This document shows, piece after piece, positions 37,172 through 41,015 of a stretch of 64,000 nucleotides of DNA (within the stretch, counting starts at the first letter, position 1; each line of letters starts with the position of its first letter). The stretch lies in IMG/VR virus record IMGVR_UViG_3300033463_000001, positions 1 through 64,000 of that record; one strand, 5' to 3'. Below the pieces are notes generated by a model, which saw only the letters and a program-made list of their open reading frames with translations, did not search any database and was not told the DNA's origin. The position numbers were made by a program, and so were the translations under genes. The stretch comes from a virus (Duplodnaviria; Heunggongvirae; Uroviricota; Caudoviricetes).

Positions 37172-37176
37172 GAATG

Positions 37177-37250
37177 TACCCCGAATGGGATTCGAACCCA
37201 CACTGTCAGGATTCTAAGTCCTGTGCCTCTACCAATTGGACTACCGAGGT
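37177..37250 (-). tRNA. tRNA-Leu(TAG), short variable loop
   Basis: CAGGA-CTTAGAA-TCCTG. Confidence 0.9.
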
Positions 37251-37973: not shown

Positions 37974-37979
37974 TCTGTG

Positions 37980-38053
37980 TACCCCGAATTGGATTCGAAC
38001 CAACACTGTATACGCTCTGAACGTATTGCCTCTTCCAGTTGGACTACCGGGGC
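37980..38053 (-). tRNA. tRNA-Leu(CAG), short variable loop
   Basis: ATACG-TTCAGAG-CGTAT. Confidence 0.9.
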
Positions 38054-38074
38054 ATTGTTGCTTACTCAGCATTG

Positions 38075-38148
38075 TACCCCTGGAAGGATTCGAACCTTCA
38101 CTGGCCAGATTTTGAATCTGGTGCCTCTACCGATTGGACTACAGGGGC
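38075..38148 (-). tRNA. tRNA-Leu(CAA), short variable loop
   Basis: CCAGA-TTCAAAA-TCTGG. Confidence 0.9.
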
Positions 38149-38156
38149 ATTTTGTG

Positions 38157-38230
38157 TACCCCGCCTGGGATTCGAACCCAGACTGAACAGGGTTTAAGCC
38201 TGATACCTCTACCTATTGGGTTAGCGGGGT
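38157..38230 (-). tRNA. tRNA-Leu(TAA), short variable loop
   Basis: CAGG-CTTAAAC-CCTG. Confidence 0.88.
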
Positions 38231-39182: not shown

Positions 39183-39185
39183 AAA

Positions 39186-39261
39186 TAGTCCCGTGTGGGC
39201 TTTCACCACAGACCTCCGCCTTATCGGTGCGGCGCTCTATTTTACTCTGAGCTACGAGACT
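39186..39261 (-). tRNA. Atypical tRNA-Ile(GAT)
   Basis: Four stems present; loop CCGATAA; D-loop lacks GG; T-loop TGAAAGC. Confidence 0.7.
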
Positions 39262-39856
39262 ATTGTATTGATTGTGCTGCGGCTCTCCTGGATTTATACC
39301 ATTGATATAGCACATAGCACATTGCGCAAATGAACATCACATATAGACCATCACCGACAGGAGTTGGGTTTTCTGGGTAAACAGTAACAGCACCACTTCC
39401 TGGTTTCTTACCATCTAACGTCCACCAATGATACCATAATCCCAGATAAGTGTTCCATCTGTCCCAAGTATTACCACCGTCGTTTGTACGCCACCAATAG
39501 GTTCCGTCCCACCTATATTCGTACCCATCTTCCCACATCCCGTTTGTCGGATTGCCTTGCGTGGAGTTGCCGGTGTCGTATTCGCTGCCATCTCCCCCAT
39601 ACACTACAACCCGTCTGGACTGCGGCCTTCCACCTCCTGAACCTTGGCCTTGACCATTATCCTGGGGTGTCCCACCGTTGCGCCCGGAACCGTTCATGTA
39701 GTACTGCCGTGATGTCTGACCATACCCATCCATTGTGTGGCCGTATCTATATGTATTCTGTTCTGGTATGCGTTGTTGTTGGTTGTGGATGGGAGTATAG
39801 GATGGAAGTAAAAGTGCCACCAACAACAGGAAAAGTATTTTGTATATTTGTTTCAT
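39260..39856 (-). CDS. Secreted protein with C-terminal PVGDG-TM-basic sorting-like tail
   Basis: N-terminal hydrophobic signal; G/Q-rich linker; W-rich domain; PTPVGDGLYVMFICAMCYVLYQWYKSRR. Confidence 0.7.
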   Translation of the reverse strand: MKQIYKILFLLLVALLLPSYTPIHNQQQRIPEQNTYRYGHTMDGYGQTSRQYYMNGSGRNGGTPQDNGQGQGSGGGRPQSRRVVVYGGDGSEYDTGNSTQGNPTNGMWEDGYEYRWDGTYWWRTNDGGNTWDRWNTYLGLWYHWWTLDGKKPGSGAVTVYPENPTPVGDGLYVMFICAMCYVLYQWYKSRRAAAQSIQ

Positions 39857-40063: not shown

Positions 40064-40071
40064 AATATGTG

Positions 40072-40145
40072 TACCCCCTGTCAGATTCGAACTGACACTG
40101 TATAGGTTCTTAGCCTATTGCCTCTACCGATTGGACTAAAGGGGT
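40072..40145 (-). tRNA. tRNA-Leu(AAG), short variable loop
   Basis: ATAGG-CTAAGAA-CCTAT. Confidence 0.9.
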
Positions 40146-40182
40146 GTGTACAGCACTTTCTGATACGTAATCTCCAGCTGTC

Positions 40183-40259
40183 TGGCGGCCACAACGGGAC
40201 TCGAACCCGTAACCCCCGGCGTGACAGGCCGGAATTCTAGCCAGTTGAACTATGTGACC
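40183..40259 (-). tRNA. tRNA-Asp(GTC), CCA encoded
   Basis: CCGGC-CTGTCAC-GCCGG. Confidence 0.95.
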
Positions 40260-40265
40260 AATTTG

Positions 40266-40361
40266 TGGGAGGAGAGAGACTCGAACTCCCCTACTGCTAG
40301 AGTCCACTACGACGATTTGATGAAGCAGACGAGTTTTACAGACTCGTGCCGTTATCCTCCC
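40266..40361 (-). tRNA. tRNA-Tyr(GTA)-like RNA lacking a D-stem, with expanded variable arm
   Basis: GGGAGGA/TCCTCCC acceptor; CGAGT-CTGTAAA-ACTCG; T-arm GGGAG-TTCGAGT-CTCTC. Confidence 0.75.
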
Positions 40362-40633
40362 AAAATATCTATTATGTCAGCGTGCTCAGGATGGTGCTTC
40401 AGGTAAGCCTCAGCAAGCGATTTGTCGATGTAGTATCTTTTAAAGAAGTCCGGTGCTGCGGCTTCCCATTCCTCTTTATGCGATGTGACGTTACCCTCAA
40501 AAGGCTCCGGCTCATGCTTCTTACAATCCTCAATTGCATCAGGGAGAGTTACCTGCCACACAGTTGGATGTAGGCATACAGGGTCGCCATCCCATACATT
40601 AAAGAACTTACACTCTAAGCATCTTGTTTCCAT
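40352..40633 (-). CDS. Hypothetical Cys-containing protein
   Basis: ATG 40633 downstream of tRNA-Trp; CxxC...C...C. Confidence 0.65.
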   Translation of the reverse strand: METRCLECKFFNVWDGDPVCLHPTVWQVTLPDAIEDCKKHEPEPFEGNVTSHKEEWEAAAPDFFKRYYIDKSLAEAYLKHHPEHADIIDILGG

Positions 40634-40727: not shown

Positions 40728-41015
40728 AATATAAAATAAGGGTGTGCTGTTACGCCAAAGCCCTCCCGTAAGTCCTACCAGAAGTGGGTTCATAACCCCG
40801 CCGTACTGCCAACGTACCATTCTCTTGAGGGTGGACTGATTACCCCATTATGGACGGCAGACCATTGAATTACCAATGTCATGTTGTGGATGTCTCCCTT
40901 ACAGTCAATAACACTCTGGGCTATTAACTCCCAGTTGCCTAAGGCTCATAGGGCACTTTCTGCACACTCCTTAGAAGATGGCTGCTTCCAGGCCAACTTT
41001 CCCTTATTTTATATT
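40728..41015 (-). ncRNA. Structured RNA containing a split copy of the 23S rRNA uL11-binding domain (H43-H44)
   Basis: Perfect 15-bp terminal stem; GTTGGCCTGGAAGCAGCCATCTTCTAAGGAGT ... GCGTAACAGCACAC. Confidence 0.8.

Follow-up and report, generated by a model that had tools for sequence, protein, structure and literature searches.

The stretch of DNA analysed here (the window; 64 kb) forms the start of a 327-kb linear viral record, 93% complete, of a rumen jumbo-phage; its sequence was matched in bovine and other ruminant gut metagenomes. Homologs of the gene described below occur in Bacteroides phages and in one Bacteroidetes MAG, which suggests that the host of the phage belongs to the Bacteroidota. 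The gene, which specifies a tRNA-Tyr, lies on the minus strand (40361-40266) inside a co-oriented cluster of ~21 tRNA genes, and tRNA-Asp starts 6 nt downstream of it. With the RNA numbered so that nt 1 corresponds to window position 40361, the locus and the predicted parts of the gene are:

40352..40633, minus strand: upstream 93-aa ORF, family unassigned, outside the conserved element; ends inside tRNA nt 1-10, with nt 8-10 as its stop codon
40266..40361, minus strand: entire gene of the pseudoknotted tRNA-Tyr(GUA), 96 nt counted to the discriminator, without an encoded CCA (sequence and family model)
40355..40361, minus strand: acceptor stem 5′ strand, nt 1-7, with G1 (two-sided changes at all 7 pairs in the family)
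40352..40354, minus strand: invariant T8-A9-A10 connector, which doubles incidentally as the stop codon of the upstream ORF (family alignment)
40348..40351, minus strand: D helix 3′ strand, nt 11-14, likely equivalent of canonical 22-25; left strand of the pseudoknot (covariation)
40330..40346, minus strand: anticodon arm, with the anticodon GUA at 40339-40337 (covariation)
40347 and 40329, minus strand: nt 15 and nt 33, which covary in the manner of the canonical 26:44 pair
40324..40328, minus strand: variable stem 5′ strand, nt 34-38, four pairs conserved in the family (covariation)
40314..40323, minus strand: A-rich pseudoknot linker, nt 39-48, with a conserved CAAAT (family alignment)
40309..40313, minus strand: relocated D helix 5′ strand, nt 49-52 plus T53, likely equivalent of canonical 10-13/14; right strand of the pseudoknot (covariation)
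40299..40308, minus strand: relocated D loop, with a conserved GG at 40305-40304 (putative G18/G19 equivalents; G57 invariant, G58 nearly invariant)
40294..40298, minus strand: variable stem 3′ strand, nt 64-68 (covariation)
40293-40291, minus strand: conserved T-A-R connector, 3′ of the variable stem (family alignment)
40274..40290, minus strand: canonical T arm, 5 bp plus a TTCRA loop (covariation)
40266..40273, minus strand: acceptor stem 3′ strand and discriminator A73 (covariation)

The first-pass annotation had read a tRNA-Tyr at 40266-40361, and this was borne out. The acceptor stem has 7 bp, all Watson-Crick, with G1-C72 and A73; the anticodon arm has a 5-bp stem and a 7-nt loop bearing GUA; and the T arm has a 5-bp stem, one G.U included, and the loop TTCGA. 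An 8-nt linker (nt 8-15) joins the acceptor to the anticodon arm, and the variable region of 39 nt (nt 33-71) contains a 5-bp stem (34-38/64-68) enclosing a 25-nt loop, within which the relocated 5′ D strand and GG loop are placed (nt 49-61). The same annotation had noticed that the upstream ORF ends within the first 10 nt of the tRNA, and its stop codon does occupy nt 8-10; this overlap was present in one of 59 family members (among the matches listed), is incidental, and was rejected as a conserved feature. No relatives of the 93-aa ORF were found in a tblastn-confirmed search, and the Pfam search was also blank. The tRNA gene is the only one for Tyr in the 327-kb genome (93% complete), in which Tyr accounts for 5.1% of the codons of long ORFs, with TAC and TAT in equal shares. 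A covariance model of the family gave a single match in that genome, the window gene itself, at 104 bits, the window gene being part of the training set.

Other features of the region were recorded. Five ~75-nt tRNA-Leu genes on the minus strand (37176-37250, 37979-38053, 38074-38148, 38156-38230 and 40071-40145) have short variable loops and, in one case, an AAG anticodon, which is unusual for bacterial class II tRNA-Leu. Two deviant tRNAs (39185-39262 and 43220-43290, minus strand) are found by Rfam and missed by default ARAGORN, namely an Ile GAT tRNA with an altered T loop and without the D-loop GG, and an Ala TGC tRNA with a shortened variable/T region. Between tRNA-Gln and tRNA-Trp there is a 288-nt structured RNA (40728-41015, minus strand) with a 15-bp closing stem (z -3.26), the 5′ part of which we take to resemble the uL11-binding GTPase centre of 23S rRNA. 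This RNA has no Rfam match, is found on deep, diverged contigs in RNA libraries, has a homolog in contig L109 and gives short unannotated matches in Aeromonas and Acinetobacter phages. Finally, a 129-aa ORF (44744-45133, minus strand) matches Pfam DUF3574 and, just below the cut-off, an S-adenosylmethionine lyase family; it is a possible anti-restriction gene.

A contig from an independent study, spanning 40064-40553, showed 10 differences from the window, none of them within 40266-40361 and nine in the adjacent ORF, where they fall in ~190 nt (four synonymous, five nonsynonymous). At the ORF rate, the chance of observing no change in 96 nt is ~0.01 by our own estimate. Since this contig carries an identical gene, an assembly artefact is excluded and the gene is, as these comparisons indicate, real DNA under constraint. 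One RNA-library contig of low depth was colinear over 40152-40340; contigs reveal neither strand nor ends, and this one could stem from DNA or from a precursor. ARAGORN called none of the 59 family members (among the matches listed), the window gene included, and the RF00005 tRNA model gave no call at the window gene, whose best Rfam match was tRNA-Sec (RF01852) at a sub-threshold 25.6 bits (cut-off, 47). When the tRNA segment was moved back in silico, ARAGORN called a tRNA-Tyr in 59 of 59 cases, but shuffled inserts were called too (74-77%), and the result was therefore discarded as evidence.

A BLASTN search returned an unannotated match in crAss001, 78% identical, together with 29 related phage records. 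The crAss001 copy has the same layout, sits between tRNA-Lys and tRNA-Phe, and is the only Tyr gene of that phage, none of whose 25 annotated tRNAs is for Tyr. Pattern scans of IMG/VR then provided a first set of 31 distinct sequences; a second set, comprising at least 29 more, was obtained using a looser pattern that left both D strands largely free and a covariance-model filter built without the pseudoknot pairs. The family thus comprises at least 59 distinct intact sequences of 89-96 nt, all on phage contigs, some of them >400 kb. The first-pass annotation had suggested a maintained novel tRNA architecture and proposed a homolog search; the same architecture was indeed recovered in crAss001 and in at least 59 diverged phage sequences, and its close relatives bear no normal tRNA-Tyr at this place, the copy in the independent strain being identical and that of crAss001 of the same design.

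Among the matches listed, the anticodon is GUA in all 59 members, other tRNAs lie within 1.5 kb of 56 of them, and a cloverleaf tRNA-Tyr(GUA) is absent from the fetched (partial) locus in 47. Twelve of the 59 (among the matches listed) lie near a cloverleaf tRNA-Tyr, so the pseudoknotted gene is not always the sole Tyr decoder; cloverleaf copies are present in, for example, L030, L037, L044 and L135. When another first anticodon base was sought, suppressors included, none of 79 pattern matches fitted the family model. A narrow search of cellular genomes gave 14 GTDB pattern matches, only one of which, on a Bacteroidetes MAG contig, fits the family, and a narrow pattern search of plasmids yielded no member. 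The MAG copy (L082:3166-3251) retains the 3′ two-thirds of the element, its 5′ part being degenerate, and is maybe a decayed copy or an integration remnant. Two metagenome matches were rejected, L001 as an ordinary cloverleaf tRNA-Tyr and L002 as a chance match. One phage (L144) contains two different pseudoknotted tRNA-Tyr copies, at 1388-1482 and 2291-2385. In the PhiCrAssBcn14 lineage the copy (L004:995-1089) is broken at its 3′ end, with the acceptor 3′ strand replaced, apparently through a deletion fusing tRNA-Tyr to the tail of another tRNA gene.

According to the first-pass annotation the tRNA had no D-stem. Comparison of the family members indicates instead that the D stem is relocated and rebuilt as a covarying long-range pseudoknot helix (nt 11-14/49-52), the linker and variable-loop tetramers changing together (CGGC/GTCG in the window gene, CATC/GATG in crAss001). 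Pairing in this helix is complete (100%) across the 59 sequences (among the matches listed), and each of its four pairs shows compensatory changes. In the first set (31 sequences) it was paired in 124 of 124 cells, a value reached in 0 of 500 shuffles, while slid registers gave 24-63%; the search patterns had fixed one of the four pairs in this set, but in the second set that pair, too, varies in a compensatory way, from C-G to T-A. Among the matches listed in the held-out set, 112 of 112 cells were paired (28 parsed members; the one left over pairs too), and all 16 distinct strand combinations were fully paired, whereas 20,000 shuffles averaged 3.2 such combinations and never exceeded 9. On a weakly resolved tree built without these columns, pair 12:51 required eight changes on the left, eight on the right and eight jointly, which indicates that the two D strands change together. 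Independent-pair sign tests (3/3, 1/1 and 4/4) were underpowered and below significance alone. Unsupervised mutual information placed the three variable pseudoknot pairs at ranks 19, 20 and 27 of 4,278 column pairs, amid the standard stems, and the 26:44-like pair at rank 26.

With all helices pooled, 97.9% of pairs were formed and two-sided changes were found at 21 of 26 (59 sequences, among the matches listed). The variable stem that encloses the moved segment also covaries; since both crossing helices do so, the data point to a true pseudoknot rather than to alternative folds of one sequence. The minimum-energy fold of the single sequence, computed with pseudoknots excluded, differs from the one proposed (-30.8 versus -26.0 kcal/mol, the latter for the nested part alone). 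Taken over the alignment, covariation supports five helices, the pseudoknot among them, and a 26:44-like contact, and the pseudoknotted secondary structure can be regarded as very well supported. It also settles three details of the earlier reading. The AGTGG of the variable loop, which had been thought to be a displaced D loop, is upheld as such by an invariant G57 and a nearly invariant G58; the GG of the linker, seen as the kept D-loop GG, falls in a segment that varies (CATC, CACC, CAAC, TCGC and others); and the GTC/GAC hairpin proposed within the variable loop shows no two-sided change, one of its pairs being broken in 14 of 31 sequences.

In the fold that we propose, the chain would run from the acceptor 5′ strand through U8-A9-A10, the 3′ D strand, the anticodon arm, the 5′ strand of the variable stem and the A-rich linker to the 5′ D strand and D loop, and on through the 3′ strand of the variable stem and the T arm to the acceptor 3′ strand. 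The D strands would pair at long range over 4 bp (probably 5 with A10-U53), crossing the variable stem to form an H-type pseudoknot; A10-T53, which may add that fifth pair, is invariant and shows no covariation. The D helix is expected to stack on the anticodon stem and the relocated GG to dock on the T loop, so that the molecule would adopt the usual L shape, its variable stem resembling that of class II. In canonical terms nt 11-14 would correspond to 22-25, nt 15 to 26, nt 49-52 to 10-13, and the GG at 57-58 to G18-G19. Canonical L-shaped tRNAs bring U8, A14 and A21 together in a triple and place the class II variable arm next to the D loop; a direct link from 9 to 21 and an exit of the D loop into the variable stem are, for this reason, plausible in space. 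The A-rich linker, which is conserved, could fold back beside the variable stem, a common habit of pseudoknot loops.

The identity set of bacterial TyrRS consists of A73, G34, U35 and G1-C72, the variable arm being read by the C-terminal domain of the enzyme, while C1-G72 is the archaeal/eukaryal Tyr identity pair (PMC9976931, PMC1934993). The window gene has the complete set (GUA, A73, G1-C72 and a variable stem). Among the matches listed, A73 was found in 57 of 58 parsed members, G1-C72 in 47 of 59 and C1-G72 in 11 of 59. Members with C1-G72 include L007, L008, L025, L027, L044, L091 and L109; in L044 the neighbouring cloverleaf tRNA-Tyr likewise has C1-G72, and the genome encodes a TyrRS. 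An A5.G68 acceptor mismatch was seen in ~11 of the 31 members of the first set. The complete phage genome behind L007 has no TyrRS of its own, and two of five other carrier phages examined encode one; in carrier phage G003 (L159/L160, 244272-245176) the TyrRS appears as two adjacent open frames. No match to a phage TyrRS was obtained in the window's genome (93% complete). Given a complete identity set and a genome without a TyrRS match, charging by the host TyrRS would be the simplest route.

From its sequence, the gene is predicted to specify a functional, host-charged, decoding tRNA-Tyr(GUA) with a rewired core, a reading to which we assign a probability of about 0.7. Host RNases would excise the tRNA from a polycistronic tRNA transcript, CCA would be added, and the host TyrRS would charge the pseudoknotted molecule, which would decode UAC and UAU. 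The likely selective reason would be the resupply, while infection proceeds, of tRNA-Tyr in a shape that is poorly recognised by host defences that deplete it: a rewired core combined with an unchanged anticodon loop could keep recognition by the synthetase and the ribosome and alter the view offered to a nuclease or modifying enzyme. Escape via changes in the anticodon loop does not apply here, since that loop is canonical. Retron-Eco7 depletes the host of tRNA-Tyr, and T5-like phages are rescued from it by phage-encoded tRNA-Tyr; anticodon or stem mutations in the phage tRNA abolish rescue, and translation function seemed to be needed (PMC11555353). In the case of PtuAB, direct cleavage was not seen in vitro (PMC12819146). 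An anti-defence purpose for the rewired shape is speculative, and the broader proposal of a ribosome-active class of non-cloverleaf tRNAs, whose D and variable arms have swapped strands and which evolved to escape tRNA-Tyr-targeting immunity, is made tentatively, at slightly less than even odds.

Second choice behind a working tRNA-Tyr is a decoy or competitive inhibitor with the same pseudoknotted fold, absorbing either a tRNA-Tyr-targeting defence effector or TyrRS and doing little or no decoding. Such a role would suit a strictly canonical anticodon loop and a design that, among the matches listed, is seen for Tyr only and in 12 of 59 cases coexists with a cloverleaf tRNA-Tyr; C1-G72 (11 members) and the A5.G68 mismatch (11/31) could impair charging, and defences that deplete tRNA-Tyr do exist (PMC11555353, PMC12819146). 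We nevertheless consider it unlikely, since the family conserves what use by the ribosome and EF-Tu would require (a 7/5 acceptor-T geometry, A73, the T loop and the 26:44-like contact), the gene fills a Tyr gap in otherwise broad tRNA sets, and the rescue of T5-like phages seemed to depend on translation function (PMC11555353). A tRNA charged with tyrosine and used off the ribosome, for example as the aminoacyl donor of a phage or host enzyme, with a core that steers it from EF-Tu, is improbable: its neighbours are tRNAs, no conserved neighbouring protein was seen, and the T stem and acceptor look canonical, even though the odd core is limited to one amino acid and the strongly conserved bases of the linkers (CAAAT, T-A-R) could offer a surface for protein binding.

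Still less probable is a permuted precursor from which cutting and religation would yield a usual cloverleaf. Like the permuted tRNA genes known from algae and archaea, such as those of Cyanidioschyzon merolae and Thermofilum pendens, the gene does contain the canonical parts in a changed order, all of them being present (PMC4033280). Those genes, however, swap halves, the 3′ half lying upstream of the 5′ half, and mature via a circle at BHB motifs to be spliced into a cloverleaf, whereas the phage gene has its acceptor strands at the normal ends and moves an internal segment, the rearranged order probably being the mature form. To restore the usual order, this segment would have to be moved by three cuts and three ligations; moreover, the variable stem around it covaries, and the RNA-library contig is colinear over 40152-40340, though possibly DNA or precursor. 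Least credible of all, and already largely refuted by the covariation, is a tRNA that really lacks a D arm and has a nested hairpin inside a giant variable loop, or else a pseudogene in decay or an error of assembly, for despite the lack of a local D hairpin, the failure of ARAGORN and the Rfam tRNA model, and the 3′-broken copy of one phage lineage (PhiCrAssBcn14), the nested hairpin shows no two-sided change and has a pair broken in 14/31 sequences while the long-range helix is never broken, and the gene is identical in the independent strain and conserved in 59 diverged sequences (among the matches listed).

The tRNA predicted here, a working tRNA-Tyr, shares with the canonical class II tRNA-Tyr(GUA) of bacteria and phages (RF00005; E. 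coli tyrT/tyrU, T5/SP15) the lengths of the acceptor stem (7 bp) and of the T and anticodon stems (5 bp each), GUA, A73 and, in most members, G1-C72, as well as a variable stem, a GG of the D type and a position in a tRNA array. It differs in that its D arm is no hairpin, the 5′ strand and loop being 3′ of the anticodon arm, in the variable loop; where a cloverleaf has a local D hairpin between the acceptor and anticodon stems, there is an 8-nt linker whose partner is nt 49-52. The first-pass annotation had likened it to D-armless mitochondrial tRNAs and to the tRNA-like domain of tmRNA. With mitochondrial tRNA-Ser and the tmRNA domain it does share the absence of a local D hairpin and a short linker from the acceptor to the next helix, but the likeness is superficial: those RNAs lose the D helix, whereas the phage tRNA keeps it by covarying long-range pairing, in which the linker strand is always (100%) matched by a distant one and the two show compensatory changes. 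Unlike tmRNA, it has a real anticodon arm and no tag ORF. The tRNA-Sec and allo-tRNAs of the (8/4) and (9/3) types remain cloverleaves with an altered acceptor/T split (PMC5389517, PMC7609411); their 8/5, 8/4 or 9/3 branch and long hairpin D stem contrast with the 7/5 branch and pseudoknot of the phage tRNA, and with its tRNA-Sec score of 25.6 bits against 47.

Neither a YrlA Rfam match on the gene nor a TROVE/Ro60 match in the genome (93% complete) was found that would suggest a Y RNA. In crAss001 (L161), a 144-nt match to the tRNA model (96453-96596) adjoins a TROVE/Ro60 gene (96870-98288), and is a possible unannotated Y RNA. The tRNA-like structures (TLS) of plant viruses, located at the genome 3′ end, use a pseudoknot to form the acceptor arm and are not known to decode. 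Those of TYMV (TLS-Val) and BMV (TLS-Tyr, which is charged with tyrosine) likewise build a tRNA shape with a pseudoknot (PMC9976931), but in the phage RNA, the product of a stand-alone tRNA gene, it is the D/variable core that contains the pseudoknot. No published description of this design was found in the literature searched, beyond whose reach lie many subscription papers, and the reviews of non-canonical tRNAs that were searched mention pseudoknots for viral tRNA-like structures only, or nowhere. A candidate RNA, DNAVirus_1423, which "sometimes" overlaps tRNA-Tyr calls (PMC10690425), may be an unlabelled earlier detection of the same class.

Bacterial tRNA genes have been described as structurally uniform (PMC4033280), and known odd tRNAs lose arms, change stem lengths or are spliced into a cloverleaf. 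We regard the pseudoknotted tRNA-Tyr as a new structural variant of tRNA. If it decodes as predicted, the rule that a cloverleaf underlies the L shape would be broken, and the shape that TyrRS, EF-Tu and the ribosome require would be attainable with a different chain connectivity. Since ARAGORN finds none of the 59 members and the crAss001 copy is unannotated, many Bacteroidota phages have been given wrong tRNA counts and wrong calls of a "missing Tyr". With crAss001 and Bacteroides intestinalis in culture, the class is directly testable; it offers a test of how phages may evade tRNA-depleting defences while the anticodon loop stays unchanged, and the fold is a possible new scaffold for the engineering of orthogonal tRNAs.
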